Part shown: piece after piece, positions 1-16,254 of the stretch
How positions within the stretch are numbered: position 1 is the first letter of the stretch
Layout: every line of letters starts with the position of its first letter
Origin: an uncultured Acidimicrobiia bacterium
GTDB lineage: Bacteria > Actinomycetota > Acidimicrobiia > Acidimicrobiales > AC-14
Direction of reading: 5' to 3'
Assembly (NCBI GenBank): GCA_963825765.1
Contig: CAWGUU010000018.1
Span: 16,401-80,400, forward strand
Length of the DNA: 64,000 nucleotides
Notes under the pieces: model-generated
What the model was told of the DNA's origin: nothing
The model's database searches: none
The model's input: only the letters and a program-made list of their open reading frames with translations
Made by a program: the position numbers and the translations under genes

Positions 1-784
1 CGCCGGCGCCTGGCACCGGGCGGCCGAGGCCTGCCGGGCCCTGGGGTTCGATTATTTCTGCTTCCTCTCCGGGCTCGACTGGATGCCGTCCACGTCGCCC
101 AACCCCCGAGCGTCCGTCTCTGACGAGCTCGATACGGGCGACGACGACGACGCCCGCGCCACCGACGACGACGCCGACGCCGACGACGTCCCGTCGGTGG
201 ACTCCGATGCGGGTGCCGAGGTAACCGCCACCGACGGCTGGGCGACGGGCGTGGCCGGCGGCGACACCCGCTTCCAGGTCTTCGCCCGCCTCTACTCCAC
301 CACCCGCCACCAGGGCGTCACCCTGAAGGCCGACCTCGACGACGACGACCCCCGGGTCCCGACCTGGTCCGACGTCTACCCCGGTGCCAACTGGACCGAG
401 CGGGAGACCTGGGAGATGTACGGGTTCGTGTTCGACGGTCACCCGCACCTGGTCAAGCTCTACCTGCCTGGCGAGTTCGAGGGGTTCCCCCTGCGCAAGG
501 ACTTCCCGCTGCTGTCCCGAGAGGTCAAGCCCTGGCCCGGTCTCGTCGACGTCGAGCCCATGCCCGAGGTGCCCGAACCCGAGGCACCGCCCGAGCCCGC
601 CGCTGAGGCACCGCCCGAGCCTGCCGAGCCCGCAGCGGAGGCACCGCCCGAGCCGACCGGCGAGGCACCGCCCGAGCCTGCCGAGCCCGCAGCGGAGGCA
701 CCGCCCGAGCCGACCGGCGAGGCACCGCCCGAGCCCGCTGCCAAGGCACCGGCCGAGCCCACCGACGAGGGCAGCGCAGGCTGA
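1..784 (+). CDS. nuoC: NADH-quinone oxidoreductase subunit C (NuoC), 5'-partial, with C-terminal Pro/Glu/Ala repeat tail
   Basis: ORF runs off window start; ...ETWEMYGFVFDGHPHLVKLYLPGEFEGFPLRKDFP is a typical NuoC C-terminus; ATGA overlap with nuoD. Confidence 0.85.
   Translation, partial: AGAWHRAAEACRALGFDYFCFLSGLDWMPSTSPNPRASVSDELDTGDDDDARATDDDADADDVPSVDSDAGAEVTATDGWATGVAGGDTRFQVFARLYSTTRHQGVTLKADLDDDDPRVPTWSDVYPGANWTERETWEMYGFVFDGHPHLVKLYLPGEFEGFPLRKDFPLLSREVKPWPGLVDVEPMPEVPEPEAPPEPAAEAPPEPAEPAAEAPPEPTGEAPPEPAEPAAEAPPEPTGEAPPEPAAKAPAEPTDEGSAG
541..760 (+). repeat. In-frame tandem DNA repeats (24/27-63 bp units) encoding PEPAAEAPPEP(T/A)GEAPPEP tail of NuoC
   Basis: near-identical 63-bp blocks gaggcaccgcccgagcctgccgagcccgcagcggaggcaccgcccgagccgaccggc repeated. 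Confidence 0.7.
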
Positions 785-1953
785 TGGCCGTCACCGACAC
801 CCAGAAGCTCACCTACATCGCCGGGCAGGCCGCCGACGCCCGGGTCAACGTCGAGCTGCAGACCGAGGACATGACCCTCAACCTCGGTCCCCAGCACCCC
901 GCCACCCACGGCACGCTCCGCATCGTCGCCAAGCTCGACGGCGAGCAGGTCGTCGAGGCCGAGGTCGTCTGCGGCTACATGCACCGGGGCTACGAGAAGC
1001 TCACCGAGTTCCGCACATATCCCCAGGTCACGACCCTGATCAACCGGATCGACTGGCTCTCCTCGTTCGCCAACGAGGTCCCCTTCATCCTCGCCGCCGA
1101 GGAGCTGATGGGGATCGAGGCGCCGCCTCGGGCCCAGTGGATCCGGACGATCCTCTTCGAGCTGAGCCGCATCGCCAACGTCACCCTCTTCATCGGGGAG
1201 ATGGGCGTGCAGTTGGGCGCCATCACCCCGGTGTTCTTCGCCTTCCGCGACCGCGAGCACGTCCTCAACCTCATCGAGTCGGCCACCGGCGGGCGGTTCC
1301 ACCCGAACTACGACCGCATCGGCGGTCTGAAGGACGACCTGCCGAAGGGCTGGGTGGCGGACACCCACGGGGCGATGACACGCATCAGGACCTACTGCGA
1401 CCAGCTCGAGGACCTCCTCATGGGCAACGCCATCTTCGAGGCCCGGACCCGCGGCGTCGGCGTGATCCCCAAGGAGCTCGGCCTCGCCTACGGGCTGTCC
1501 GGCGCCAACATCAGGGCCAGCGGCGTCGACTGGGACCTGCGGCGGGACGAGAAGTCGCCCCTCGTGTGGAGCGAGCTGGACTGGAAGGTGTGGACCCACC
1601 CCGACGGCGACTCGTTCGCCCGCTACTGGGTCAGGCTGCAGGAGGTGCGCGAGGCCACCAAGATGGTCGACCAGATGCTCGACGGGCTCCCCGCCGGGCC
1701 GATCCAGGCCAAGGTCCCCCGCATCATCAAGGTGCCGGCCGGCGAGGCGTGGGCCCACACCGAGAACCCCCTCGGCGAGATGGGGTACTACGTGGTCAGC
1801 CAGGGCGGCCTGGGCCCGTTCCGGTGCAAGATCCGTTCGGCGTCGTTCCACAACACGTCGATCGTGCCGTGGCTCCTGAAGGGCGTCTACGTGCCCGACA
1901 TCATCACGATCCTCGCCAGCCTGTACTTCATCCTCGGCGACATCGACCGGTAG
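784..1953 (+). CDS. nuoD: NADH-quinone oxidoreductase subunit D (NuoD, 49 kDa)
   Basis: 389 aa; LGPQHPATHGTLRIVAKLDGE..., conserved NuoD motifs. Confidence 0.95.
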   Translation: MAVTDTQKLTYIAGQAADARVNVELQTEDMTLNLGPQHPATHGTLRIVAKLDGEQVVEAEVVCGYMHRGYEKLTEFRTYPQVTTLINRIDWLSSFANEVPFILAAEELMGIEAPPRAQWIRTILFELSRIANVTLFIGEMGVQLGAITPVFFAFRDREHVLNLIESATGGRFHPNYDRIGGLKDDLPKGWVADTHGAMTRIRTYCDQLEDLLMGNAIFEARTRGVGVIPKELGLAYGLSGANIRASGVDWDLRRDEKSPLVWSELDWKVWTHPDGDSFARYWVRLQEVREATKMVDQMLDGLPAGPIQAKVPRIIKVPAGEAWAHTENPLGEMGYYVVSQGGLGPFRCKIRSASFHNTSIVPWLLKGVYVPDIITILASLYFILGDIDR

Positions 1954-2045
1954 AGCGCCCTTCGCCAACCCGTCGAGCGTGCGAAAGGTCGCCATGGCGA
2001 TCCTTCTTGCACGCTCACGGCTCGGAGCCGCGACTCCATGCCGGC

Positions 2046-2273
2046 TCAGGCTTCGGGTTCGGGTGCCTCTTCTTCTTCCGACTCGATCGCGACCTCGTTG
2101 CCTTCGGGACGGGGGATCAGGGACTTGACCTTGTCCTTGACCGGGGCGACCTTGTCGTGGCCCAGCTTGTCGCCGGCGAAGTCGGCCACCTTGTCGACGA
2201 CGTCGTCGATCTTGTCGGCGTTCCCCGCGACCAGGTCTTTCGCCTTGTCGGCCAAGCCGTTCAGGTCAACCAT
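2046..2273 (-). CDS. small MT0933/Rv0909-like antitoxin-family (CsbD-like) protein
   Basis: 75 aa from ATG preceded by GGAGGAG; DKAKDLVAGNADKIDDVVDKVADFAGDKLGHDKV resembles PF14013-type proteins; lies between nuoD and nuoH on opposite strand. Confidence 0.55.
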   Translation of the reverse strand: MVDLNGLADKAKDLVAGNADKIDDVVDKVADFAGDKLGHDKVAPVKDKVKSLIPRPEGNEVAIESEEEEAPEPEA

Positions 2274-2415
2274 GGGCTCCTCCATCACTCGTCGGACACG
2301 CAACTGCGGATTCAGGTGTAGCTACCCAACGCGGATACCGGCCAAGCCTGGCACGCCTACGTTGCGGCAAGGTTGTCACTGTGTGAAGGCGTTCACTAAT
2401 GTCCGACGCTGAGCG

Positions 2416-3438
2416 ATGCTTGCCCTCGAACTTCCCTACTGGCAACTCACCGTCATCAAGACGGTCGTTGTGCTGTCCATCATTCCGGCGGCCGCGATCA
2501 TCCTCGGCTACGTCTTCCTCCTGAAGATGATGGCCCACATGCAGAGCCGGCTGGGCCCCATGGAGCCGGGCGGCTACCACGGCTGGTTCCAGCTGATCGG
2601 CGACGGCATCAAGTTCATCCAGAAGGAGGACATCATCCCGGACGAGGCCGACCGCCGGGTGTTCGCGGTGGCGCCGGTGGTGGTCCTCGTTTCGACGTTC
2701 CTGCTGTACGTGGTGATCCCAGCCGGGCCCGACCTGGTCGTCGAGAACCTCGACGTCGGCATCTTCTACGCCTTGGCGGTGGGCTCGCTGTCGGTCATCG
2801 GCGTGCTCATGGCCGGGTGGGCATCGGCCAACAAGTTCTCCCTGCTGGGCTCCCTGCGAGCCGCCGGCCAGCTCATCGCCTACGAGCTGCCGCTGGTGCT
2901 GGCGGTCGTCGGCGTGGTCATCCAGGCCGAGACCATGAGCCTGCAAGGCATCGTCCACGCCCAGGCGGACGGCTCGATCTTCGGCATCGGCTGGCTCGGC
3001 AACCCGTTCGTCCTCACCCAGATCGTCGGCTTCGTGATCTTCCTCGCCGCCGCCCAGGCCGAGCTCACCCAGACCCCGTTCGACATGCCGGTGGCCGAGT
3101 CCGAGCTGGTGGCCGGCTACATGACCGAGTACTCCGGCTTCCGGTTCCTGTTCTTCTTCATGGCCGAGTTTGGCACCGCCTTCGCGCTGTCGGCCATCGC
3201 CGCCACCCTCTACCTGGGCGGCTGGTACCAGCCGTTCATCACCGGCGACCTCGCCAACCTGGTCGGACCGCTCGTCCTGTTCGCCAAGGTGATGCTCATC
3301 GCCTTCGTGATCTTCTGGGTGAGGTTCACGTTCCCCCGTTTCCGTGAGGACCAGCTCCAGAGCTTCGCCTGGAAGGTCCTCATCCCGATCTCGCTGGTCA
3401 ACATCCTGGCGACCGGCGTTCTGAAAGTGATTTTCTGA
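2416..3438 (+). CDS. nuoH: NADH-quinone oxidoreductase subunit H (NuoH)
   Basis: 340 aa polytopic membrane protein; classic NuoH N-terminus. Confidence 0.95.
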
Positions 3439-3911
3439 TGGCAGGAGCTCGCGGGTTGGCCAAGGGCCTGGGCGTCACGTTCAAGACGATGCTCAAGCCG
3501 GCCGTGACGGTGCAGTACCCCCACGAGAAGGAGGCCCCGACCCCCCGGGCGCGGGGCGTCATCGCCCTCAAGGAGGAGAACTGCACCTCGTGCATGCTGT
3601 GCGCCAGGGAGTGCCCCGACTGGTGCATCTACATCGAGGCCCACAAGGAGAAGCGCCCGCCCCGGCGTGAGGGTGGCAAGCCCCGCACCGTCAACGCCCT
3701 CGAGCGGTTCGACATCGACTACGCCCTCTGCATGTACTGCGGCATCTGCGTGGAGGTGTGCCCGTTCGACGCCCTCTTCTGGAGCCCCGAGTACGAGTAC
3801 TCCGAGGTTCGGATCGCCGACCTTCTCCACGACAAGGAAAAGCTCGGGGAGTGGATGCAGGGTGTCCCCGAGCCCGAGCCGCTCGAGGCCGGCGCGGTCA
3901 AGAAGAAGTAG
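3438..3911 (+). CDS. nuoI: NADH-quinone oxidoreductase subunit I (NuoI, 2x[4Fe-4S])
   Basis: [12 protein letters not shown] and [12 protein letters not shown] ferredoxin motifs; TGATG overlap with nuoH. Confidence 0.95.
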
Positions 3912-3924
3912 GACCGAATCCGTC

Positions 3925-4416
3925 GTGGTCGCCCAGAACATCGCCTTCTACCTGCTGGCCGTGGCCATGGTGGCGGCCGCCTTCCGGCTGGTCACCACCA
4001 AGAACGTCGTGCGGGCCGCCCTCTACCTGGCCGTCGTGCTGGCGGGCGTGGCCGGGCTCTTCATCCTGCTGGCCGCCGAGTTCGTGGCGTGGGCCCAGGT
4101 GCTGGTCTACATCGGTGCCGTCGTCGTGCTGCTCCTGTTCGGGGTCATGCTCACCCGGGCGCCGATCGGCCGGGAGTCCGACCTCGACAACGACCAGAAA
4201 TGGCTGGCGGCCGTGGTGGCGATGTTCCTGGTCGGCGCTCTCGCCGCCGTGCTCGGCGACGCCTTCGGGACCGAGGAGATCGCCTTCGGCGAGATCCAGC
4301 CCACCGCAGCCCTGGCCGACTCGCTCTTCAGCACCTACGTGATCCCCTTCGAGGTCGCGTCCATCCTGCTGCTGGCCGCCCTCGTCGGCGCCGTCGCCCT
4401 GGCCAGAAGGGACTAG
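3925..4416 (+). CDS. nuoJ: NADH-quinone oxidoreductase subunit J (NuoJ)
   Basis: GTG start (VVAQNIAFYLLAV...), hydrophobic; in-frame with listed ORF 3667..4416 whose N-terminal part overlaps nuoI. Confidence 0.85.
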   Translation: MVAQNIAFYLLAVAMVAAAFRLVTTKNVVRAALYLAVVLAGVAGLFILLAAEFVAWAQVLVYIGAVVVLLLFGVMLTRAPIGRESDLDNDQKWLAAVVAMFLVGALAAVLGDAFGTEEIAFGEIQPTAALADSLFSTYVIPFEVASILLLAALVGAVALARRD

Positions 4417-4425
4417 GTACCGGCG

Positions 4426-4725
4426 ATGATGCTCAACCAGTTCCTCTTCCTCGCCGCGATCATCTTCTGCCTCGGTGTCTACGGAGTCCTGGCCCGCAAG
4501 AACGCCGTCCTGGTCCTCATGTCGATCGAGCTCATGCTCAACGCCGTGAACATCAACCTGATCGCCTTCGGCGCCTTCCGCGACAACGTGATCGGTCAGG
4601 TCTTCGCCGTCTTCGTCATCGCCATCGCCGCCGCCGAGGTCGGCGTCGGGCTGGCCATCGTCCTGCTCATCTACCGCAACCGCGCCAACATCGACCTGGA
4701 CCAGGCCGATCTGATGAAGGGCTAG
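4426..4725 (+). CDS. nuoK: NADH-quinone oxidoreductase subunit K (NuoK)
   Basis: 99 aa; ...[17 protein letters not shown]... Confidence 0.95.
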
Positions 4726-4736
4726 GGCGCCGCCCG

Positions 4737-6728
4737 ATGCTGGAGAACGCCTGGCTCATCCCGCTGACCATGGCGGTGTCGTTCGTCCTCATCCTGTTCT
4801 TCGGCAAGCGCATGCCGAAGAAGGGGGCCGAGATCGGCATCCTGGCCATCGGCGCCTGCTTCGTGATGTCGGTGATGACCGTCCTGCAGTGGATCGCGCG
4901 GGAGGGCCACCCGCACCGCGAGGCCGTCGAGGCCCACCTGACGTGGTTCAAGTTCGGGAGCGTCGACCTGGGCGCCGGCATCCACGTCGACGGCCTGACG
5001 GTGATGATGCTCTTCGTCGTCACCTTCATCTCGCTGATGGTGCACATCTATTCGACGGGCTACATGCACGGCGACCGGCGGTACACGTACTTCTTCGCCG
5101 CCCTGTCCCTGTTCACCGCGGCCATGCTCCTGCTGGTCGTCGCCGACAACACCCTCCAGATGCTGATCGGGTGGGAGCTCGTCGGCCTCTGCTCGTTCAT
5201 GCTGATCGGCCACTGGTGGGAGGAGACCGACAACTCCAGCGCCGCCATCAAGGCCTTCATCACCACCCGGATCGGCGACGTCGGCCTGCTGCTCGGCATC
5301 ATCACCCTGTTCTTCGCCGCCGGCCAGAACTTCAACATCGAGCACCTGAACCACGAGGCCCTCAGCGGTGGCATCAGCCACACCCTCCTCGTCGTCGGCG
5401 CCAGCCTCCTGTTCCTCGGGGTCATGGGCAAGAGCGCCCAGTTCCCGCTGCACGTGTGGCTCCCCGACGCCATGGCCGGCCCCACGCCGGTGTCGGCCCT
5501 GATCCACGCCGCCACCATGGTCGTCGCCGGCGTGTACCTGGTGGCCCGGCTGTACGGCGTCTTCTGGGAGGGCTTCTCCATCGCCGCCGGGGGCATCAAC
5601 CCGATGGCCCTGATCGGCGCCATCACGGTGATCGCCTGCGCCGCCCTCGCCTTCGTCCAGGACGACGTCAAGAAGGTGCTGGCCTATTCCACGGTAAGCC
5701 AGCTGGGGTACATGGTCATGGCCCTCGGCGTCGGCGCGTGGACAGCCGGGATCTTCCACCTCTTCACCCACGCCGCCTTCAAGGCCCTGCTCTTCCTCGG
5801 GGCGGGTTGCCTCATCCACGCCGTCCACTCCAACAACATGAGCGACATGGGTGGGCTCCGAAAACACATGCCGACCACGTTCGTCACGTTCATCATCGGC
5901 TCCCTGGCCCTGGCCGGGATGTTCCCGCTCGCCGGCTTCTGGTCGAAGGACGAGATCCTCCTCGGCGCCCTGACCGGCCCCCAGGGCAACGGCTACCCGC
6001 TCATGCTGATCGTCGGGATCGTCGGGGCTTTCATGACCGCCGCCTACATGACCCGCACCTGCTACCTCGTCTTCTTCGGCGAGTACCGGGGCCACGGCGA
6101 GCCCCACGAGGCCCCACCGTCGATGCGGTGGCCCCTGGTCGTCCTCGCCGTCCCGGCGGTGCTGTTCGGCCTGCTCAACGCCCCGGGGCTCGAGAAGTTC
6201 AACCACTGGGTCGCCTTCCACGTGCCGGGCGTGGAGGAGATCGTCGAGCACCACGAGTTCAACCCGTCGCTGGCCCTGATCTCGCTGGCGGTCGTCCTGG
6301 CGGGCATCGGCATCACCTGGCGGGCCTACGCGGCCGACGGCTGGCCGAGGGGGCTCATGGCCCGGAGCTCGTTCCTGGCTACCGCCCACCGCATCCTGGT
6401 GAACAAGTACTACCTCGACGCCCTCTTCATCGACGGCATCATCCGCAAGATCCAGTACCCGATCGCCCGGGCCGCGTATTGGTTCAACCAGCACGTGATC
6501 GACGGCGTGGTGAACGGTGTCGGCATCGGTTCGCGGAAGGTTGCCGGGTTCGTCTACGACATCATCGACCAGAAGGGCGTCGACGGGCTCGTCAACGCCG
6601 CCGGTGCCGGTGCCGAGGAGGGCGGCAAGGTCCTGCGAAAGACGCAGACGGGCCGCGTGCAGCAGTACGCCGCCTTCCTGTTCGGGGCCTCCGCGCTGCT
6701 GGCTGTGGGCCTGGTCTTCCTGACGTGA
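4737..6728 (+). CDS. nuoL: NADH-quinone oxidoreductase subunit L (NuoL)
   Basis: ATG at 4737 (MLENAWLIPL...) in frame with ORF 4089..6728; antiporter-like subunit. Confidence 0.9.
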   Translation: MLENAWLIPLTMAVSFVLILFFGKRMPKKGAEIGILAIGACFVMSVMTVLQWIAREGHPHREAVEAHLTWFKFGSVDLGAGIHVDGLTVMMLFVVTFISLMVHIYSTGYMHGDRRYTYFFAALSLFTAAMLLLVVADNTLQMLIGWELVGLCSFMLIGHWWEETDNSSAAIKAFITTRIGDVGLLLGIITLFFAAGQNFNIEHLNHEALSGGISHTLLVVGASLLFLGVMGKSAQFPLHVWLPDAMAGPTPVSALIHAATMVVAGVYLVARLYGVFWEGFSIAAGGINPMALIGAITVIACAALAFVQDDVKKVLAYSTVSQLGYMVMALGVGAWTAGIFHLFTHAAFKALLFLGAGCLIHAVHSNNMSDMGGLRKHMPTTFVTFIIGSLALAGMFPLAGFWSKDEILLGALTGPQGNGYPLMLIVGIVGAFMTAAYMTRTCYLVFFGEYRGHGEPHEAPPSMRWPLVVLAVPAVLFGLLNAPGLEKFNHWVAFHVPGVEEIVEHHEFNPSLALISLAVVLAGIGITWRAYAADGWPRGLMARSSFLATAHRILVNKYYLDALFIDGIIRKIQYPIARAAYWFNQHVIDGVVNGVGIGSRKVAGFVYDIIDQKGVDGLVNAAGAGAEEGGKVLRKTQTGRVQQYAAFLFGASALLAVGLVFLT

Positions 6729-6751
6729 AACCCCCGAGGAGTCTCTGAGCA

Positions 6752-8284
6752 ATGGTCCTGACCGCAGCCATCTTCCTGCCGATCCTCGGCGTGATACTCC
6801 TCGCCGTCATCCCGCGCTCGCAGGAGCAGGTCCTCAAGGCCGTGGCTCTGCTGGTGGCCCTGGGCACGACCGTCGCCGGGGTCGTCATCCTCAGGGGTTT
6901 CGACTACGGCCAGTCCGAGCGACTCCAGTACGAGGTCAACGAGCGCTGGATCGACGTCATCAACAGCCATTTCCACATCGCCGTCGACGGGATCTCGCTC
7001 CCGCTGCTGATCCTGTCGATGGTCATCACCGTCCTGTGCATCGTCTACTCCTGGGACCACTGGCCCGAGCCCCACAACCCGAAGGCGTTCCTGATCCTGA
7101 TGCTCCTCCTGGAGACGGGGATGAACGGCACCTTCGCCGCCCAGGACCTGATCTTGTTCTTCGTGTTCTTCGAGCTGGTGCTCCTGCCGATGTACTTCAT
7201 GATCGGAGTCTGGGGCGGTCCCAACCGGCAGTACGCAGCCATCAAGTTCTTCCTCTTCACCCTGTTCGGGTCGGCCCTGATGATCCTGAGCTTCCTCGCC
7301 CTCTACTTCCTGGGCGGGAACACTTTCGACATCCCGGAGCTCGTCCGCAACGGGTCGTCGATCGCAAGGGACACGCAGATCCTGATCTTCGCCGGCCTCT
7401 TCATGGGTTTCGCCATCAAGGTGCCGATGTTCCCGTTCCACACCTGGCTGCCCGACGCCCACACCGAGGCGCCGACGGTCGGCTCGGTGATCCTTGCCGC
7501 CGTGCTCCTGAAGCTGGGCGTCTACGGCTTCATCCGGGTGGCGCTCCCGATCCTGCCGGAGGCGGCCCGGGCGTGGGCCCCATGGATCGGGTTGCTGGCG
7601 GTCATCGGCATCATCTACGGCGCCCTCGGGTGCCTGGCGCAGAAGGACATGAAGCGCCTCATCGCCTTCTCGTCGGTGGCGCACATGGGGTTCATCATGC
7701 TGGGCGTCGCCACCCTCACCGACTTCGGGATCAACGCCGCGGTCTTCGGGATGGTGGCCCACGGGCTCATCACCGGGATGCTCTTCTTCATCGCCGGGTC
7801 GGTGCAGGAGCGGTTCGGCACCCGTGAGATCTCCCGCCTCGGCGGGCTGCTGACCCAGGCGCCCCACCTCGGCTGGATCCTCGGGTTCTGCGTCTTCGCC
7901 TCGTTGGGCCTGCCCGGCCTGGCCGGGTTCTGGGGCGAGTTCCCCGCCATCCTCGCCGCCTACCAGCCGGCCGAGGGGCTTCCTGTCGGCGTCTTCCGCG
8001 CCTACATGGCGGTCGCCGCCATCGGCACCGTCTTCGCCGCCGGCTACCTGCTCTGGATGCTGCAGCGGGTGGCGTTCGGCACCGCCAAGGCCGAGTTCGA
8101 GGACAGCCACATCCACGACGTCCACGTCTCCGAGTACATCGCCTGGGTGCCGCTGCTGGTCGGCATCCTGGTCCTGGGCATCTTCCCGGGCCTGCTCTTC
8201 GGCGTCACCAACGACGCCGTCGAGGCCGTCGCCCAGACGACCGGCGCGGTCGTGAACCTGGCCACCGGCGTCGGGCACCCATGA
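6752..8284 (+). CDS. nuoM: NADH-quinone oxidoreductase subunit M (NuoM)
   Basis: 510 aa antiporter-like subunit. Confidence 0.95.
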   Translation: MVLTAAIFLPILGVILLAVIPRSQEQVLKAVALLVALGTTVAGVVILRGFDYGQSERLQYEVNERWIDVINSHFHIAVDGISLPLLILSMVITVLCIVYSWDHWPEPHNPKAFLILMLLLETGMNGTFAAQDLILFFVFFELVLLPMYFMIGVWGGPNRQYAAIKFFLFTLFGSALMILSFLALYFLGGNTFDIPELVRNGSSIARDTQILIFAGLFMGFAIKVPMFPFHTWLPDAHTEAPTVGSVILAAVLLKLGVYGFIRVALPILPEAARAWAPWIGLLAVIGIIYGALGCLAQKDMKRLIAFSSVAHMGFIMLGVATLTDFGINAAVFGMVAHGLITGMLFFIAGSVQERFGTREISRLGGLLTQAPHLGWILGFCVFASLGLPGLAGFWGEFPAILAAYQPAEGLPVGVFRAYMAVAAIGTVFAAGYLLWMLQRVAFGTAKAEFEDSHIHDVHVSEYIAWVPLLVGILVLGIFPGLLFGVTNDAVEAVAQTTGAVVNLATGVGHP

Positions 8285-9795
8285 TCCTGCAGCTGGCCCA
8301 GGCGGTGGTCCCGTTCAAGGCGCCGACGCTCGACTACCACGCGCTCGCCCCGGAGATCGTCCTCAGCGTCGTGCTGGTGGCGGTGCTGCTGGCCGACGTC
8401 CTGCTCGACGACTCCAAGAAATGGGTCATACCCAGCATCGCCAGCTTCGGGCTGCTGGCCACCATGATCCCGATCATCACCCTGGCGCTCTACGGCGACG
8501 ACGTGCGGTCGATGCTGGGTGGCGCCTACGTGGTCGACAACTTCGCCCTGGTGTTCAAGGGGCTGTTCGTCGGCGTCGGCTACGTGGTCCTGCTGATGTC
8601 GACCACCTACGTCGAGGAGGGCGACTACTACGAGGGGGAGTTCTACTTCCTCCTGCTGGCCTCGATCTTCGGCATGGTCGTGATGGGCTCGTCCCGCGAC
8701 CTCATCAGCATCTTCGTGGCCCTGGAGACGCTCTCCATCCCCGCCTACATCCTGGCCGGCTGGCGCAAGCGTGACCTCAAGAGCAACGAGGCGTCGCTGA
8801 AGTACTACCTGCTGGGAGTCCTGGCGTCGGCGGTGATGCTCTACGGCATGTCGCTCGTCTACGGCGCCACCGGCACCACGATCCTCGTGCGCATCGGCGA
8901 GCAGATCGAGGGAAGCGCCACGGCGGTGCCGCTGGCCACCTTCGCCATCCTGTTCATCATCGTCGGCTTCGCCTTCAAGGTCTCGGCCGTCCCGTTCCAC
9001 TTCTGGGCTCCCGACACCTACGAGGGTGCCCCCACGCCGGTCACGGCCTTCCTCTCCGTGGGGTCGAAGACGGCGGGGTTCGTGGCCCTCTTCGAGCTCG
9101 TCTTCATCGGCTTCTTCGGGCGCTCGGAGGTCTGGGCCCCACTGTTCGGAATTCTCGCCGTCCTCACCATGACGGTCGGGAACCTGATCGCGCTGCGCCA
9201 GACCAACATCGTGCGCATGCTGGCCTACTCGTCGATCGCCCAGGCCGGCTACATCCTCGTCCCGTTCGCGGTGGCCGGCACGAGCATGGCCGCGGCCAAG
9301 AGCTCGATGACGGCGGGCGTCGTCTACCTGCTCATCTACGCGGCGATGAACCTCGGCGCCTTCACGATCGTCATGGCCGTCGCCCGCAAGACCCGGTCGG
9401 GGGACATCTCCTCCTACGGCGGGCTGTTCTCCTACGCCCCCGGTCTGGCCGTGCTGATGACGATCTTCCTGTTCTCCCTCGCCGGCATCCCGCCGCTCGC
9501 TGGCGCGTGGGCCAAGATCTTCATCTTCCGGGCCGTGCTCGACGCCGGCACGTCGTGGGCGATCGCCCTCGGAGTCGTCGCCGCGGTGAACTCGGTGATC
9601 GCCCTCTTCTACTACTCGGCGGTGGCCAAGGAGATGTGGATGAGCCCCGTCCCCGAGGGCCAGGAGGCGGCGCCGATCCGGGTGCCGGCGTCGCTGGTGG
9701 CGGCCCTGGGGATCACCTCGTCGATCGTCGTGGTGGTGGGCGTCTACCCCCAGATCCTCGCCCGCTTCGGCGACCTGGCGTCGCTGGTGCGATAG
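8281..9795 (+). CDS. nuoN: NADH-quinone oxidoreductase subunit N (NuoN)
   Basis: 504 aa; ATGA overlap with nuoM. Confidence 0.95.
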   Translation: MILQLAQAVVPFKAPTLDYHALAPEIVLSVVLVAVLLADVLLDDSKKWVIPSIASFGLLATMIPIITLALYGDDVRSMLGGAYVVDNFALVFKGLFVGVGYVVLLMSTTYVEEGDYYEGEFYFLLLASIFGMVVMGSSRDLISIFVALETLSIPAYILAGWRKRDLKSNEASLKYYLLGVLASAVMLYGMSLVYGATGTTILVRIGEQIEGSATAVPLATFAILFIIVGFAFKVSAVPFHFWAPDTYEGAPTPVTAFLSVGSKTAGFVALFELVFIGFFGRSEVWAPLFGILAVLTMTVGNLIALRQTNIVRMLAYSSIAQAGYILVPFAVAGTSMAAAKSSMTAGVVYLLIYAAMNLGAFTIVMAVARKTRSGDISSYGGLFSYAPGLAVLMTIFLFSLAGIPPLAGAWAKIFIFRAVLDAGTSWAIALGVVAAVNSVIALFYYSAVAKEMWMSPVPEGQEAAPIRVPASLVAALGITSSIVVVVGVYPQILARFGDLASLVR

Positions 9796-9861
9796 AGCTG
9801 CCGGTCGGGGATCGTCCTGTCGGCGATGTGAGTTGCCGACCTGGCTCGGCGGCGCGGGCCG

Positions 9862-10845
9862 GTGCGCTTCGACCGGGTGGTCGAGCTGGCGTTGTACGAC
9901 GCCGACGGCGGTTTCTACGAGCAGGGTGGCGGCGCCGGTCGTGGCGGCGCCGATTTCATCACCAGTCCCGAGGTGGGGCCACTGTTCGGTACCGTCCTCG
10001 CCGGCGCGCTGGACGGCTGGTGGCGGGAGCTGGGTAAGCCCGACCCGTACGTCGTCGTGGAGGTGGGGGCGGGCACGGGCACGCTGGCGGCCGCGGTCCT
10101 GGCCGCCGCTCCGGACTGCTCGCCGGCCCTGCGCTACATGCCGGTGGAGCGTTCCGCGGCCCTGCGCGCACGGGCCAGGCCGGGGCTGGAGATGCGGGCC
10201 GAGCCGCCACTAGGCCCCTTCGACGGGGTCGTGGTGGCCAACGAGCTTCTCGACAACCTGCCCTTCCGGCTCCTGGAGCGCACGCCCTCGGGTTGGGACG
10301 AGGTGTTCGTCGGCGCCGACCTGGTGGAGGAGCTTCAGCCGGCAGACGATGCAGCGGCGGCCGAGGCCGTGCGGCTGGGGCCGGGCGCAGCCGTCGGCGC
10401 CCGGATCCCCCTCCAGCACCAGGCCCGGGACTGGCTCGTCGACGCCCTGTCGAGGCTTCGCCGGGGCAGGGTGGTGGTCGTCGACTACATGGACACCACG
10501 CCGTCGATGGCCGGCCGCCCGTGGAGCGAATGGGTCCGGACCTACCGCGGCCACGGCCGTGCCGGCGGTCCGCTGGAAGGGCTCGGCACCGCCGACATCA
10601 CCTGCGAGGTGGCGCTCGACCAGCTGGCCGCGGTCCGCGCTCCCGACGAGGACCGCACCCAGGCCGAGTTCCTCGGCGCCCATGGCATCCAACGCCTCGT
10701 CGAGGTGGCCCATGCCGAGTGGCTCGAGCGGGCTGCCATCGGCGACCTCCGGGCCCTGAAGGCCAGGAGCCGGGTGACCGAGGCCGCCGCCCTCACTGAT
10801 CCGTCCGGGCTGGGGGCGTTCAGGGTCCTGGAATGGCGGGTCTGA
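9862..10845 (+). CDS. SAM-dependent methyltransferase, MidA/NDUFAF7-like (DUF185)
   Basis: GTG start; VVEVGAGTGTLAAAVL SAM motif, ...ANELLDNLPF..., MidA family architecture; directly downstream of nuoN. Confidence 0.7.
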   Translation: MRFDRVVELALYDADGGFYEQGGGAGRGGADFITSPEVGPLFGTVLAGALDGWWRELGKPDPYVVVEVGAGTGTLAAAVLAAAPDCSPALRYMPVERSAALRARARPGLEMRAEPPLGPFDGVVVANELLDNLPFRLLERTPSGWDEVFVGADLVEELQPADDAAAAEAVRLGPGAAVGARIPLQHQARDWLVDALSRLRRGRVVVVDYMDTTPSMAGRPWSEWVRTYRGHGRAGGPLEGLGTADITCEVALDQLAAVRAPDEDRTQAEFLGAHGIQRLVEVAHAEWLERAAIGDLRALKARSRVTEAAALTDPSGLGAFRVLEWRV

Positions 10846-10898
10846 TCCCGAAAGCCTGCTCTAAACTCCGAAAAGCCTGCTCTAAATTCCGAAAGACA
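10846..10898 (+). promoter_or_regulatory. two 21-bp direct repeats plus partial third upstream of acs (candidate operator/promoter element)
   Basis: tcccgaaagcctgctctaaac / tccgaaaagcctgctctaaat / tccgaaagaca; AT-richer than surroundings; ends 23 bp before acs ATG. Confidence 0.4.
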
Positions 10899-10920
10899 GT
10901 GGCCGATAGGCTCCCGGGAC

Positions 10921-12882
10921 ATGGCTGACCCGGCGACCATCGAGGCGTACTACCTCGAGGACCGCACCTTCCCGCCCTCCGAGGAGTTCAAGAAGAACGC
11001 CCTCGTCGTCGACAACTCCATGCACGAGGAGGCCGAGACCGACTTCGAGGGCTTCTGGGCCCGGCAGGCGGCCGAGCTCCTCGACTGGGACTCCGAGTGG
11101 GACACCATCCTGGAGTGGGAGCTGCCGTTCGCCAAATGGTTCGTCGGCGGCACGCTGAACGCCTCGGCCAACTGCGTCGACCGCCACGTGGCCGCCGGCA
11201 AGGGCGACAAGGTCGCCTTCCACTGGGAGGGCGAGCCCGGCGACACCCGCACCATCACCTACGCCGACCTGTGCGAGGAGGTGCAGAAGTTCGCCAACGT
11301 CCTGAAGTCGCTGGGCGTGGCCAAGGGTGACAGGGTCAACGTCTACCTGCCGATGATCCCCGAGCTGCCGGTGGCGATGCTGGCCTGCGCCCGGATCGGG
11401 GCGGCCCACTCCGTGGTCTTCGGCGGGTTCTCGTCCGACGCCTTGCGTGACCGGATCAACGACGCCGAGGCCAAGGTGCTGGTGACCGCCGACGGCGGGT
11501 GGCGGCGGGGCAAGGCGGTACCGCTCAAGGACAACGCCGACGCCGCCGTCGAGGGGACGCCCACCATCGAGCACGTGGTGGTGGTCAAGCGCACCGGGGC
11601 CGACGTGGCGTGGGTCGAGGGCCGAGACCAGTGGTACGCCGACCTCATGGAGGGCGCCTCCGCCGACTGCCCGGCCGAGCCGATGGACTCGGAGCAGCTC
11701 CTGTACCTGCTCTACACGTCAGGCACCACGGCCAAGCCCAAGGGCCTCATGCACACCACCGGCGGGTACCTCACCCAGGTCGCCTTCACCCACAAGTACG
11801 TCTTCGACCACCACCCCGACACCGACGTGTACTGGTGCGCGGCCGACATCGGCTGGGTCACCGGCCACAGCTACATCGTCTACGGCCCGCTGGCCAACGG
11901 GGCCACGTCGATCCTGTACGAGGGCAGCCCCGACTTCCCCGAACGTGACCGGTGGTGGTCGATCGTCGAGCGCTACAAGGCGACGATCCTCTACACCGCC
12001 CCCACCGCCATCCGCACGTTCATGAAGTGGGGCGCGGAGTTCCCGGCGGGGCGCGACCTGTCGTCGCTCCGGGTGCTCGGGTCGGTGGGCGAGCCCATCA
12101 ACCCCGAGGCGTGGATGTGGTACTCGGAGAACATCGGCGGCGGTCGTTGCCCGGTGGTCGACACCTGGTGGCAGACCGAGACGGGCGCCATCCTCATCTC
12201 ACCCCTCCCCGGGGCGACGACCACCAAACCGGGTTCGGCCACGTTTCCGCTCCCGGGGATCGCCGCCGAGGTGGTGGACGAGAAGGGCAACTGCGTGGCA
12301 GAGGGGGGTGGGTACCTCACCCTCACCCGGCCCTGGCCGAGCATGCTCCGGGGCATCTACGGCGACCCCGAGCGCTACCACCGGACGTACTGGTCACGCT
12401 TCGAGGGCCGCTACTTCGCCGGCGACGGGGCCAAGATCGACGCCGACGGCTACCTGTGGCTGCTCGGCCGGGTCGACGACGTGATGAACATCTCCGGACA
12501 CCGGATATCGACCGCGGAGGTGGAGTCGGCGCTGGTCCACCACCCCTCGGTGGCGGAGGCGGCGGTCGTCGGGGCCAAGGACGCCACCACCGGCCAGGCC
12601 ATCATCGCCTTCGTCACGCTGAAGGGCGACGTGGAGGCCGACGCCGAGCACGGCGAGGCCCTCCGGCAGCACGTGGCCCAGAAGATCGGCCACATCGCCC
12701 GGCCCAAGACGGTGATCTTCACCGACGACCTGCCCAAGACCCGCAGCGGCAAGATCATGCGCCGGCTTCTCCAGGACGTGGCCGAGGGCCGAGATCTGGG
12801 CGACACGACCACCCTTGCCGACGCCGGCGTGGTGGAGGAGATCAAGAAGCGGGCCAACGCCGGCGCGGGCGATCAGGATTAA
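10921..12882 (+). CDS. acs: acetyl-coenzyme A synthetase
   Basis: 653 aa; [14 protein letters not shown]-binding motif; strong family resemblance. Confidence 0.95.
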
Positions 12883-13422
12883 GTGTCGCAAGGAGCAGAG
12901 AAGCCGGGGCCGGAGGAGGACGTCGAGCTGCAGATCCCCTCCCACTGGGAATGGCGGGACGGCCCTGTCGAACCGGGCCCGGCCGTCGTCTTCGACATCG
13001 ACGGCGTGCTCTCCGACGCCACCAACCGCCAGCACTTCCTCGAGGGGGAGGGCGACAAGAAGGACTGGCGGGGGTTCTTCGACGCCTGCGGCGACGACCC
13101 GCTCCTCGAGGACGTGGCCGGGCTGGTCGAGGTGATCGACCGCGACCTCACCGTCGTCCTCCTCACCGGCCGGCCCGTGCGGGTGCAGCCGGCCACGCTG
13201 GCCTGGCTGGAGCGCTACGGCGTGCGCTGGGACCTGCTGATCATGCGCAACCGGGGCGACTACTCGACCGCCCCGGAGTTCAAGCGCCAGACCGTCGGCG
13301 AGCTGCGGGAACGGGGCTTCGACCTCCGCCTGGCCTTCGAGGACGACGTCCGCAACCGGGACATGTTCAAGAGCGAGGGCGTGCGCTGCGTGTACATCCA
13401 CTCCGGCTACTACGAGAACTGA
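12883..13422 (+). CDS. HAD-superfamily phosphatase-like protein
   Basis: GTG start immediately after acs stop; VVFDIDGVL (HAD motif I), VLLTGRP. Confidence 0.6.
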   Translation: MSQGAEKPGPEEDVELQIPSHWEWRDGPVEPGPAVVFDIDGVLSDATNRQHFLEGEGDKKDWRGFFDACGDDPLLEDVAGLVEVIDRDLTVVLLTGRPVRVQPATLAWLERYGVRWDLLIMRNRGDYSTAPEFKRQTVGELRERGFDLRLAFEDDVRNRDMFKSEGVRCVYIHSGYYEN

Positions 13423-13667
13423 CACGTTCGGGCGCCACGAGAACTGGTCCCGGCCCGGCGGGTGCGCGGGGCCAGGGCTCGTCTGGTTCCACTCGACTGG
13501 CTGTTTCTGCTCGCGCAATTCCGCCATATAGCCGGTACTTTCGCGAGCAGAACCTGCCTGCCGGTCCCGATTCCTGGCGCCCCGTGGTCCCTAAGGGACG
13601 ATCTTCCGGCGAAGACCCGGAACGCGCGCCGGGGCCGGAACGTTACAGAGGGAGACAAGGAGCAGAA

Positions 13668-14519
13668 GTGAGCAAGAACACAGCCAAGACGTACGTGCTG
13701 ATGGCAGGCCTCGGCGGCATGCTGGTGCTGGTGGGGTCGATCTTCGGCCGGGTCGGCACGATCATCGGCCTCCTCATCGGCCTGGCGTTCGTCGGGGGGT
13801 CCTACTGGTTCTCGGACAAGTTGGCCATCAAATCGGCCAAGGCGGTGCCGGTGACCGAGGCGGAGATGCCCGAGTACTACAGGATCGTCCGCGAGCTCAG
13901 CACCGAGGCAGGCATGCCGATGCCGGCCCTGTACGTCACCCCCGACCTCCAGCCCAACGCCTTCGCCACCGGGCGGAACCCCCAGCACGCCGCGGTCGCG
14001 GTGACACGGGGCATCCTCAACATCCTCGACTGGGACGAGCTTCGCGGCGTGCTGGCCCACGAGCTCAGCCACGTCGGCAACCGCGACATCCTGATCGGCT
14101 CGGTGGCCGCCGCGGTGGCCATGGGCATCACCTTCGTGGCCCGGATGGCCATGTGGGGTGCCATGTTCGGCGGCGGCGGCGATGACGACGACACCAACCC
14201 CCTTGCCATGCTGGCCTTCGCCTTGCTCGCCCCTCTCGCCGCCGCAGTGCTGCAGATGTCGCTGAGCAGGAGCCGCGAGTACGAGGCCGACCGTGCCGGG
14301 GCCCGGCTGATCCACGACGGCGAGCCGCTGGCCCGGGCGCTGGCCAAGCTCGATCGGGGTGCGAGGGCGATCCCGATGGCCGTGGATCCCACCCAGGCCT
14401 CGAAGTACATCGTCAACCCGCTGAGTGGACGCAAGGTGCAGTTCGCCAACCTGTTCTCCACCCACCCTCCGATGGAGGAGCGGATCGCCCGCCTCCGGGC
14501 ACGGGCGTGGCAGGAATAG
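13668..14519 (+). CDS. htpX: zinc metalloprotease HtpX (M48)
   Basis: GTG after GGAGACAAGGAG; HELSHVGNRD HExxH motif; only C-terminal part of the listed 855-aa ORF is genuine. Confidence 0.85.
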   Translation: MSKNTAKTYVLMAGLGGMLVLVGSIFGRVGTIIGLLIGLAFVGGSYWFSDKLAIKSAKAVPVTEAEMPEYYRIVRELSTEAGMPMPALYVTPDLQPNAFATGRNPQHAAVAVTRGILNILDWDELRGVLAHELSHVGNRDILIGSVAAAVAMGITFVARMAMWGAMFGGGGDDDDTNPLAMLAFALLAPLAAAVLQMSLSRSREYEADRAGARLIHDGEPLARALAKLDRGARAIPMAVDPTQASKYIVNPLSGRKVQFANLFSTHPPMEERIARLRARAWQE

Positions 14520-14562
14520 GTAGGACGTAGGCATAGGTAGGACGAAGGCCTGAGAGTTCTCG

Positions 14563-14591
14563 CCCGGTTCCGGCTGCGGGCAGGAACCGGG
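14563..14591 (+). terminator. possible intrinsic terminator hairpin after htpX (9-bp perfect stem cccggttcc/ggaaccggg, no U-tract)
   Basis: seen directly in sequence. Confidence 0.3.
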
Positions 14592-14642
14592 CGTCCCGGC
14601 GGCGAAAGGGTAGGGGTCGCGCCTACCCGCATCCGTTCGCTG

Positions 14643-15776
14643 GTGGTCCTCGTCCCGGTCGTCCTACTCCTGACGGTCAGCGGGCTTCCCGTGGCGCGGG
14701 CCCAGACGGCCCCGCCGACGCCGCCGACAACGGTGAAGGGACTGCTGGAGGACATCCTCTCCAGGCTCATTCCCCCGACGCCCCCTCCGCCTCCGCCCAC
14801 CACGGCCGTCCCACCGGAGCCGGCGCCCGAACCCGCCCCGGACCCGGCGGCCGATGCGGGCCCGACGACGACGGAGCCCGGCACCATCCCACCCGAGTTC
14901 CTGCCGATCATCAACTCCCTGCGCAAGTCCGGCCCTCGGAACAACTCCGCCCTCCTGGACGCCCTGCGGAGCCTCGAGGACCTGGGCCTGACCAGCGAGG
15001 AGGTGGCCCTGCTGGGATCGGGCCAGTTCCCGGTGGCCGGCCCGGTCAGCTACACCGACGACTGGCACGATGCCCGCTTCGGCCCGCCGTTCCACCTCCA
15101 CCAGGGCACCGACATCTTCGCGGCCCGGGGGACCCCCATCCGGGCCATGGAGGCCGGTGTCGTCTCGTTCACCGACGGGGGCCTGGGCGGCAAGGGCGCC
15201 TATCTCAACGCGGTGGGCGGCACCAGCTACTACATGGCCCATCTGAACGGCTACCCCCGGGACGTGTCGAGCGGATCGCGGGTGAACCAGGGAGACGTGA
15301 TCGGCTTCGTCGGCAGCACGGGGAACGCCGAGGGCGGCTCACCGCACCTGCACTTCGAGATCCGTCCCGGCGGCGGCGAGGCCACCAACCCCAAGCCCAT
15401 CCTCGACCGCTGGCTGGACGAGGCGCTCGAGGCCGTGCCGACCCTGCTGGCCTCGTTCAACATCAACGTGCCTCGCGCCGTCACCGCGGCCGGCATGCTG
15501 CGCCGGTTCGAGGGCGGGATGTACTCCGGTTCGGGCCAGACGGCGGTCGCGCCGCTGCTGTGGGCGTCGTCGGTCAGCGCGGGCGGGGGAACGCTACGGC
15601 TGGCCGAGCTGGTGGCCATGCGCATGGCCAGCCGGATCGACTGGGACGGGCGCACCAGCGTGCAGGAGCTCCAGGCGCAGTCGCTCAGGGACGCCCGGGC
15701 GGTCGCCGGCTCGGTGCTGGCGCCGGTGACGCCGACCGTGGTGATGCGACTGCTGGGGCCGGGCCTCAGTCCCTGA
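14643..15776 (+). CDS. secreted M23 family metallopeptidase (LytM domain)
   Basis: signal peptide, Pro-rich linker, HxxxD (HQGTDIFAARGTPIRAMEAGVV) and HLHFE motifs. Confidence 0.8.
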   Translation: MVLVPVVLLLTVSGLPVARAQTAPPTPPTTVKGLLEDILSRLIPPTPPPPPPTTAVPPEPAPEPAPDPAADAGPTTTEPGTIPPEFLPIINSLRKSGPRNNSALLDALRSLEDLGLTSEEVALLGSGQFPVAGPVSYTDDWHDARFGPPFHLHQGTDIFAARGTPIRAMEAGVVSFTDGGLGGKGAYLNAVGGTSYYMAHLNGYPRDVSSGSRVNQGDVIGFVGSTGNAEGGSPHLHFEIRPGGGEATNPKPILDRWLDEALEAVPTLLASFNINVPRAVTAAGMLRRFEGGMYSGSGQTAVAPLLWASSVSAGGGTLRLAELVAMRMASRIDWDGRTSVQELQAQSLRDARAVAGSVLAPVTPTVVMRLLGPGLSP

Positions 15777-16254
15777 AGTTCTTGAACTGGAGGGGGACCC
15801 CGAAATCCTCCTCTTTCAGCGCCGCGATCACGGCCTGAAGGTCGTCCCGCTTCTTGCCCGACACGCGGACCTGGTCGCCCTGGGTCTGCGACGACACGCC
15901 CTTGACGCCGCGGGCCTTGATGAACTTGTTCACCTCGCGGGCCTTGACGTCGCTGATCCCGGCGTTGATCGATACCGTCTGGCGCACCGTGCCCTTGGCC
16001 GCGTCCTCGACGGTGCCGTATTCGAGGGCCTTGAGCGACACCGACCGGCGGACCAGCTTCTCCTCCAGCACCTGGGAGAGCGCCTTCATGCGGTCGGCGG
16101 TGGCCGACGTCAGCCGGATCTCCCCGTCGCCGAGCTCGATGCTCGACCCGGTGTCCTTGAAGTCGAAGCGGGTGCCGACCTCCCGCTGGGCCTGGTCGAC
16201 GGCATTGCGGACCTCCTGCAGGTCCACCTCGGAAACCACGTCGAAGGTGGGCAT
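15766..16254 (-). CDS. yajQ: YajQ family (UPF0234) nucleotide/c-di-GMP-binding protein
   Basis: MPTFDVVSEVDLQEVRNAVDQAQREV... family-typical; longer listed ORF would overlap tRNA-Tyr so internal ATG chosen. Confidence 0.8.
   Translation of the reverse strand: MPTFDVVSEVDLQEVRNAVDQAQREVGTRFDFKDTGSSIELGDGEIRLTSATADRMKALSQVLEEKLVRRSVSLKALEYGTVEDAAKGTVRQTVSINAGISDVKAREVNKFIKARGVKGVSSQTQGDQVRVSGKKRDDLQAVIAALKEEDFGVPLQFKNFRD

Follow-up and report, generated by a model that had tools for sequence, protein, structure and literature searches.

A MidA/NDUFAF7-family methyltransferase gene next to an 11-gene complex I cluster in Acidimicrobiia and Thermoanaerobaculia

Does the position of a methyltransferase gene directly behind a complex I operon indicate what the enzyme acts upon? 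The question is raised by a 64,000-nucleotide stretch of DNA from an uncultured Acidimicrobiia bacterium (assembly GCA_963825765.1, contig CAWGUU010000018.1; the whole stretch is called the window hereafter), in which an open reading frame (ORF) at 9862-10845 on the plus strand, with a GTG start and a product of 327 aa, follows nuoN at the end of a nuo cluster. A sequence-only reading of the window had assigned this ORF to the MidA/NDUFAF7 methyltransferases, whose eukaryotic member NDUFAF7 modifies an arginine of the NuoD homologue, and had taken its placement as a suggestive functional linkage. The assignment is confirmed and the linkage is supported by the data presented here, and we consider it probable that MidA is a dedicated maturation factor of an N-module-less complex I, co-expressed with nuoH-N and methylating Arg68 of NuoD.

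Membership of the MidA family is established by sequence, motifs and fold. The protein matches PF02636 (Methyltransf_28, the MidA/DUF185 family; COG1565) with an E-value of 1.9e-31 and 109.9 bits (cutoff 23.3), residues 49-258 being aligned to profile positions 5-236 of 249; none of the NCBIfam models matched it. Homologues are abundant, with 6611 proteins at E<=0.001 among the candidates scored and 6956 representative clusters at 50% identity, and an exact look-up in the contig index gave no match for either the window protein (P0001) or P0447. Searching the PDB with the sequence returned MidA-family entries only: 4f3n from Burkholderia (phmmer E 1.7e-17, 26% identity), 1zkd from Rhodopseudomonas (E 1.2e-10) and 5ztz from Dictyostelium, described as "protein arginine methyltransferase NDUFAF7 homolog" (E 7.3e-9), the last of which is aligned over essentially its whole length by a family profile built from 18 diverse relatives (E 1.2e-43). 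The AlphaFold2 model, based on an alignment of 38 homologues, has a mean predicted local distance difference test score (pLDDT) of 94.1 and a predicted template modelling score (pTM) of 0.91, and is confident from residue 1 onward. It displays the MidA-type fold, that is, a Rossmann methyltransferase core with family-specific insertions and a C-terminal helical part. Comparison of the model with the PDB using Foldseek gave template modelling (TM) scores of 0.83 for 4g67/4f3n, 0.76 for 1zkd and 0.78-0.79 for 5zu0/5ztz, with E-values of 2e-23 to 5e-21; beyond these MidA-family structures only unrelated methyltransferases were recovered, with TM scores of at most 0.40. The GC content by codon position of midA (0.80/0.53/0.89) follows the pattern of real genes in sequence of about 70% GC and, together with the thousands of homologues and the confident model, identifies midA as a real coding sequence. 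The S-adenosylmethionine (SAM)-binding motif and the family motifs are all intact in the window protein:

Residues 31-37, DFITSPE.
Residues 67-73, EVGAGTG, the glycine-rich, SAM-binding motif I.
Residues 95-98, VERS.
Residues 126-134, ANELLDNLP.
Residues 208-209, DY.
Residues 245-247, DIT.

The corresponding columns are invariant or nearly so in both family alignments (A1 and A2) and coincide with the same motifs in 5ztz, 1zkd and 4f3n, so that the family consensus DFxTxPE, ExGxGxG, ANELLDxxP, DY and DIT is kept; the roles of these motifs, SAM binding among them, are presumably those known from methyltransferases in general. The window protein is thus an ordinary member of a known family and a predicted SAM-dependent methyltransferase. 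Some other acidimicrobial MidA proteins (P0006, P0007, P0011, P0016, P0045, P0076 and others) carry an insertion after the ANELLDNLPFRLLQR motif in which a peptide such as TGDTSGRQD(A/D)(P/Q)(D/I)RHQF occurs once or in up to about five tandem copies (columns ~220-325 of alignment A1); this repeat expansion is variable, is situated in a surface loop and is missing from the window copy.

The cluster that precedes midA consists of the following genes, NuoD being the proposed substrate:

83..784, plus strand, nuoC (PF00329).
784..1953, plus strand, nuoD (PF00346, NuoD models of NCBIfam, and translation).
2416..3438, plus strand, nuoH (PF00146, E 7.5e-100).
3438..3911, plus strand, nuoI (157-aa ORF; the orthologues in related loci carry Fer4 families).
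3925..4416, plus strand, nuoJ (first start GTG 3925; orthologues with PF00499).
4426..4725, plus strand, nuoK (99-aa ORF; orthologues in related loci with PF00420).
4737..6728, plus strand, nuoL (ATG 4737 inside a longer ORF, 4089-6728; tblastn matches in all related loci).
6752..8284, plus strand, nuoM (PF00361, PF01059).
8281..9795, plus strand, nuoN (TIGR01770, 391.5 bits against a cutoff of 332.6; PF00361).

The genes nuoA and nuoB are expected upstream of the window start, where they are cut off; the order in a relative (L017) is nuoA-B-C-D-H...N-midA. In the window nuoD ends at 1953 and is followed by nuoH, which starts at 2416, with no nuoE, nuoF or nuoG between them, so the cluster (83-9795) is of the 11-gene type that lacks nuoEFG and hence the N-module. 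No ORF of the size and composition fitting NuoF or NuoG stood out elsewhere in the window, most ORFs of which were not scanned against Pfam.

We then asked how far the arrangement is kept in relatives. One scan covered one genome per GTDB species with a single-protein query and gave 15 loci, 14 of them true: 13 from metagenome-assembled genomes of Acidimicrobiia type and one from Thermoanaerobaculia. The fifteenth (L015, Marinomonas) is a false positive, an ORF for a YidC-like membrane insertase that has only the peptide ELGKPDPY in common with the query. The other, an alignment-based scan of metagenomes, retained the 80 loci closest to the window protein (MidA 38-62% identical), other phyla not being sampled, and 52 of these were informative in having at least 600 nt upstream of midA. 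Neighbouring genes were located by tblastn with the Nuo proteins of the window. In 47 of the 52 informative metagenomic loci nuoN lies less than 500 nt upstream of midA on the same strand, and in two (L089, L100) it lies farther off. The 14 informative genomic loci comprise seven with adjacent genes, one adjacent at the level of ORFs (L014), four with inserts and two without nuo genes nearby. In L002, L003, L004, L006 and L009 midA follows directly upon the end of nuoN, both being on one strand, and two annotated contigs read nuoA-B-C-D-H-I-J-K-L-M-N-midA (L017) and nuoD-[HTH + DUF6036/AbiEii]-nuoH...N-midA-acs (L016; HTH, helix-turn-helix; acs, acetyl-CoA synthetase). In L001, L008, L011 and L012 nuoN is found 1.4-4.6 kb upstream of midA. 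These counts show long-term retention rather than many independent events. The conservation that the sequence-only reading had proposed to look for across Actinobacteria is found in Acidimicrobiia-like lineages, down to 38% MidA identity, and is not shown for Actinobacteria as a whole.

The stretches that separate the two genes are 5478-9899 in L008, 6140-9899 in L012, 6303-9950 in L001 and 8716-9846 in L011. According to ORF translations, L008 contains an ISL3-transposase-like ORF with low GC at third codon positions (GC3), L001 contains response-regulator- and kinase-like ORFs, and L011 a single gene on the opposite strand; the inserts of these three loci look unrelated to complex I. In L033, a metagenomic locus without nuo genes, a second and fragmentary MidA-like ORF (1226-1681; ...GRRGAFITSPEAG...) is located 2.5 kb upstream of the intact midA, which suggests a local rearrangement.

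Linkage of midA to nuo genes is also found in other arrangements and in a second phylum; to widen the sample, homologue searches were seeded with a Thermoanaerobaculia protein (L013) and with the sequence of 1zkd. In L089 (61% GC; 1-21023) midA is located 143 nt upstream of nuoA, its product being 42% and NuoD 75% identical to those of the window. In four loci of Thermoanaerobaculia (Acidobacteriota) midA lies 93-121 nt upstream of nuoA, and three of them on megabase contigs (L018, L019, L020; MidA 59-70% identical to the L013 protein) read epimerase-midA-nuoA-B-C-D-H-I-J-K-L-M-N on one strand, with no nuoEFG. The proteins of Thermoanaerobaculia and Acidimicrobiia are distant, with only 26-36% identity for MidA and about 40% for NuoD. 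Wherever the nuoD-nuoH junction of a linked cluster was within the fetched sequence (for example L003, L004, L006, L017-L020 and L089), nuoEFG was absent from it. The cluster is of the 11-gene type in each of the three gene orders and in both phyla, and such a recurrence is what one would expect if MidA and complex I were functional partners. It supports a partnership of this kind, for which the independent support rests on the three gene orders. A functional association of MidA with complex I, at the level of conserved gene linkage only, is supported by these data.

In L089 midA (9947-11026) is flanked by two nuo clusters, the order being a divergent nuoI-N (NuoN 39% identical to that of the window), an epimerase gene, an ORF whose N-terminus resembles UDP-glucose dehydrogenase by eye, midA, and nuoA-B-C-D-H-I-J-K-L-M; midA and its flanking clusters occupy one strand, and the downstream cluster belongs to the 11-gene type of Acidimicrobiia. 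In L018, L019 and L020 (~8400-10004), too, midA-nuoA is always preceded by a gene for an NAD-dependent epimerase/dehydratase (PF01370). The epimerase was considered as a conserved third partner (e.g., NDUFA9-like) and rejected as probably not one, on the grounds that the L089 and Thermoanaerobaculia epimerases are only 25-26% identical and that in L089 the dehydrogenase-like ORF comes after the epimerase gene.

The candidate substrate contains the residue that the family is known to modify. NuoD of the window includes VCGYMHRGYEKL, which aligns with the bovine peptide KCDPHIGLLHRGTEK, and reads ...VVCGYMHRGYEKL... around the arginine in question:

985..987, plus strand, codon CGG of NuoD Arg68, in GYMHRGYEK; equivalent to Arg85 of the bovine 49-kDa subunit and to R121 of Yarrowia.

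The motif HRGxEK is present in the window and in all 24 midA-linked NuoD sequences that retain the N-terminal region, as GYMHRGYEK in 20 and as GYLHRGTEK in the four loci of Thermoanaerobaculia; the target context, whose absence would have spoken against the earlier proposal, is thus in place. The bovine Arg85 is fully symmetrically dimethylated, and the same symmetric dimethyl-arginine occurs in the enzymes of human, Pichia and Paracoccus denitrificans; E. coli has the arginine in unmodified form, and in Thermus the position is taken by a threonine (PMC3750175). In Yarrowia the stability of cluster N2 depends on R121, which is part of an HRGXE motif (PMC8042128). NDUFAF7 is the methylase of this arginine in human cells (PMC3829151, PMC9006661), and an NDUFS2 peptide serves as a substrate of recombinant Dictyostelium MidA (PMC9006661).

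The junction of nuoN and midA bears both on co-expression and on the integrity of midA. The two genes lie on the plus strand, and the stop codon TAG of nuoN at 9793-9795 leaves a spacer of exactly 66 nt (9796-9861), as the sequence-only reading had given it:

9796..9861, plus strand, nuoN-midA spacer, with an in-frame TGA at 9829-9831 followed by 10 codons at 9832-9861 (VADLARRRGP).

A scan of 9300-11300 for promoters and terminators yielded no terminator-like and no sigma-70-like site, and a scan of 1-16000 against Rfam gave no family match; since both scans were empty, there is no evidence for a regulatory RNA or a terminator between the two genes. The short spacer and the lack of a terminator-like site in the scanned region were counted in favour of a nuoN-midA operon. 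The spacer is not neutral, as the codons at 9832-9861 are homologous to an N-terminal extension of close relatives. Directly before GTG 9862 the midA frame reads M-stop-VADLARRRGP (ATG-TGA), whereas at this point an in-frame GTG opens an 11-residue extension, V-V/I-A-D/G-L-...-GPVRFD, in L009, the closest genomic relative, and in P0002 (85% identical). Relative to L009, one additional A is present in the window at 9831 (GTG-GTC to GTG-A-GTT), which creates the in-frame TGA 9829-9831 and puts the upstream GTG 9828-9830 out of frame; this base is either a genuine indel or an artefact of the assembly. Among canonical start codons the first in frame is GTG 9862; TTG 9833, which lies in the wrong frame, and CTG 9841, which is not canonical, were rejected as alternatives, and inspection by eye revealed no clear ribosome-binding site ahead of GTG 9862. 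Two further close relatives (P0003, P0004) are called at the equivalent short start, and we treat the shortened N-terminus as a caveat and not as evidence of decay. Broken reading frames are observed in L009, where midA is split over three reading frames (10001-10973), and in L001, where nuoL lies in many frame-shifted pieces (1034-3146); both are "MFD" metagenome-assembled genomes, and these breaks are probably assembly indel errors and not pseudogenes.

Taken as a whole, the linkage, the family and the motif in NuoD suggest the following course of events. MidA would be co-expressed with nuoH-N and would bind newly made NuoD, in which it would methylate Arg68 within HRGYEK, probably to symmetric dimethyl-arginine. 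By its position, Arg68 would be the loop arginine beside the iron-sulphur (Fe-S) cluster N2 at the NuoB/NuoD interface, and the modified NuoD would then be released into assembly of the Q-module. The data establish the family and fold of the protein, its intact motifs, the conserved linkage and the presence of the target arginine, whereas the substrate, the symmetric dimethylation, the co-transcription and a role in assembly or in tuning of N2 are inferred.

A number of observations weigh against this explanation. A single clade accounts for most of the adjacency counts, which shared ancestry inflates, and they do not represent independent events. Three of the 52 informative metagenomic loci (L023, L033, L088) have no nuoN near midA, and in L005 and L007 ("Ca. 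Aldehydirespirator") no nuo gene occurs within 10 kb of it. The gene for the 1zkd protein of R. palustris is situated between lgt and a Cu-oxidase_4 gene, again with no nuo gene within 10 kb, so that the linkage is not a family-wide property; it is neither general to the family nor obligatory. MidA also evolves much faster than most of its Nuo neighbours, to judge from the comparison of L009 with the window: identity is 77-82% for MidA, 93-98% for NuoD, H, J, K, L, M and N, ~81% for NuoC and NuoI, and 93% for Acs. The window protein lacks, through a one-base difference, 11 N-terminal residues of its closest relatives. The arginine itself is weak and non-discriminating evidence for methylation: because it is widely conserved, and unmethylated in E. 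coli, its presence does not prove modification. Another activity has been described for a bacterial homologue, since Wolbachia MidA is reported to methylate DNA in E. coli (PMC12455994). Several of these points would be accommodated if MidA were active on some other substrate, protein or small molecule, and its position beside nuo were an inherited gene order without functional meaning. Such an explanation, which would suit the weight of a single clade in the counts, the separate location of midA in R. palustris and in L005, L007 and L033, and the proteobacterial homologues 4f3n and 1zkd that have no assigned substrate, appears unlikely to us: the linkage to 11-gene clusters recurs in three gene orders and two phyla between which MidA is only 26-36% identical, it survives insertions of 1.4-4.6 kb, and the sole known substrate of the MidA family is the NuoD homologue (PMC3750175, PMC9006661).

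It is also conceivable, at a lower level of probability, that midA is decaying or inactive in this particular genome, the frameshift having taken away its original start and N-terminus. The extra A9831, which entails an in-frame TGA and the loss of 11 codons present in L009 and P0002, and the lack of a clear ribosome-binding site would be in line with decay; we nevertheless think it improbable, given that the remaining 327 aa are uninterrupted and keep all family motifs, that GC3 is 0.89 and the model is confident from its first residue, that P0003 and P0004 are called at the same short start, and that the base could be an assembly error. Two further possibilities concern the partner of the enzyme, and we regard both as very improbable. 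MidA might belong with the downstream acs and, for example, modify Acs, as the window has acs less than 500 nt behind midA, and so do 9 of the 37 metagenomic and 3 of the 13 genomic loci that are informative on this point, with acs farther downstream in 18 and 2 more, respectively; yet no acs was found in 10 of the 37 and 8 of the 13 loci, it is not beside midA in L089 or in any of the Thermoanaerobaculia loci, where nuo still adjoins, and a link between MidA and Acs is not known. MidA might instead be a DNA (nucleic-acid) methyltransferase, as proposed for the Wolbachia homologue on the basis of adenine and cytosine methylation upon its expression in E. coli (PMC12455994); but midA has no restriction-modification or DNA-related neighbour, its fold matches MidA-family structures only (TM score 0.25 for the DNA methyltransferase M.TaqI), and its conserved partner is a respiratory complex. 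A dedicated role of MidA in the maturation of the N-module-less complex I, through Arg68 of NuoD, is accordingly the explanation that we prefer.

If this explanation is correct, it bears on a debated modification. In animals NDUFAF7 is essential as an assembly factor of complex I, and its target arginine touches the Fe-S cluster N2, the role of the methyl groups being discussed either as an assembly checkpoint or as a means of tuning N2. We put forward, tentatively and with somewhat less than even confidence, that methylation of the N2-proximal arginine by MidA is not confined to Proteobacteria and mitochondria, but belongs to the maturation of N-module-less, 11-subunit complex I-like enzymes and is encoded in their operons in at least Actinomycetota (Acidimicrobiia) and Acidobacteriota (Thermoanaerobaculia), both of them phyla outside the Proteobacteria. 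The modification would then be tied to the Q-module rather than to NADH oxidation. That midA is paired with a minimal complex I of 11 subunits in both phyla is the first neighbourhood-based evidence that we found for a bacterial role; it calls a proteobacterial origin of this protein arginine methylation into question and has a bearing on the origin of the assembly factor. It also offers simple test systems, such as cultured Acidimicrobiia that possess the cluster. A specialist in complex I would not be greatly surprised by the link between midA and nuo.

The remainder of the neighbourhood can be described briefly. Three features had no place in the sequence-only reading, namely the 11-gene type of the cluster, the lost 11-codon extension of midA, and an antitoxin-like gene on the opposite strand between nuoD and nuoH. 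The last occupies the 463-nt gap between these genes and thereby splits the cluster: the gap contains a single ORF of 85 aa (2046-2303, minus strand) of the MT0933-like antitoxin family (PF14013, E 8e-11). At the same junction L016 has an HTH_31 gene and a DUF6036/AbiEii-like gene (1291-2426), and in L003, L004 and L006 nuoD and nuoH abut. In 14-gene operons nuoEFG would lie at this junction, which seems to be a preferred site for small toxin-antitoxin-like inserts. Downstream of midA the window contains:

10921-12882, acs, acetyl-CoA synthetase.
12883-13422, HAD phosphatase, after acs.
C-terminal part of the ORF 11952-14519, HtpX protease, after the HAD phosphatase.
After HtpX, an M23 peptidase.
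After the M23 peptidase, minus strand, a YajQ/DUF520 gene.

The spacer between midA and acs includes, at 10846-10887, a tandem duplication of a relatively AT-rich unit of 21 nt (TCCCGAAAGCCTGCTCTAAAC / TCCGAAAAGCCTGCTCTAAAT), the core of which, GCCTGCTCTAAA, is confined within the window to these two copies (chance expectation, 0.07). The corresponding spacer of L009 is much shorter (~40 nt), and the only segments in common before the acs start are ...cgaaag... and ggccgataggctcc. The repeat is possibly part of an acs promoter or operator region.

It remains to compare the locus with known systems. The statement of the sequence-only reading that bacterial MidA proteins are poorly characterised agrees with the literature (PMC12455994), and the link between enzyme and substrate in bacteria has been drawn only in silico (PMC12455994, PMC9006661). 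Term searches of two surveys of 11-subunit complex I (PMC3144371, PMC4453560) found methyltransferase or methylation unmentioned, and in the literature searched we found no paper that describes midA in or next to nuo clusters or associates it with 11-subunit complex I. Among solved structures the best match is the COG1565 protein of Burkholderia thailandensis (4f3n, 4g67; TM score 0.83, 26% identity), which is longer (432-residue chain) and has no assigned function. The alphaproteobacterial homologues, such as 1zkd from R. palustris, are likewise bacterial members of the family, but have only 22-23% identity to the window protein. R. palustris and P. denitrificans are generally credited with a 14-subunit complex I. 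That the modification exists in bacteria is known from Nqo4 of P. denitrificans, a NuoD homologue that carries the symmetric dimethyl-arginine (PMC3750175). A methyltransferase gene inside a nuo operon has a precedent in urf7 of Rhodobacter capsulatus, which encodes a SAM-dependent enzyme with a complex I assembly role proposed in silico; it differs in its length of 257 aa and in its 14-gene operon, and no PF02636 assignment was found in the parts consulted of its description (PMC9036352). We regard it as a different methyltransferase and as a parallel, not homologous, case. The cluster itself has the order nuoA-B-C-D-H-I-J-K-L-M-N of the 11-subunit complex I, described as widespread, including actinobacteria (PMC3144371, PMC4453560). 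Human NDUFAF7 and MidA of Dictyostelium discoideum (5ztz, 5zu0) share with the window protein PF02636, the full-length fold (TM score 0.78-0.79), the SAM-binding and family motifs and, as candidate substrate motif of the NuoD/NDUFS2 homologue, HRGxEK. They differ from it in sequence (~20% identity), in length (a crystallised chain of 414 residues against 327 aa), in their mitochondrial targeting context, and in that their genes are unlinked to those of complex I, whereas the window gene lies within a nuo cluster and has as its partner a bacterial 11-subunit complex devoid of the NADH-oxidising NuoEFG. Set against these systems, the locus does not represent a new kind of system; what it adds is the conserved operonic link of midA to a minimal complex I in Actinomycetota and Acidobacteriota.

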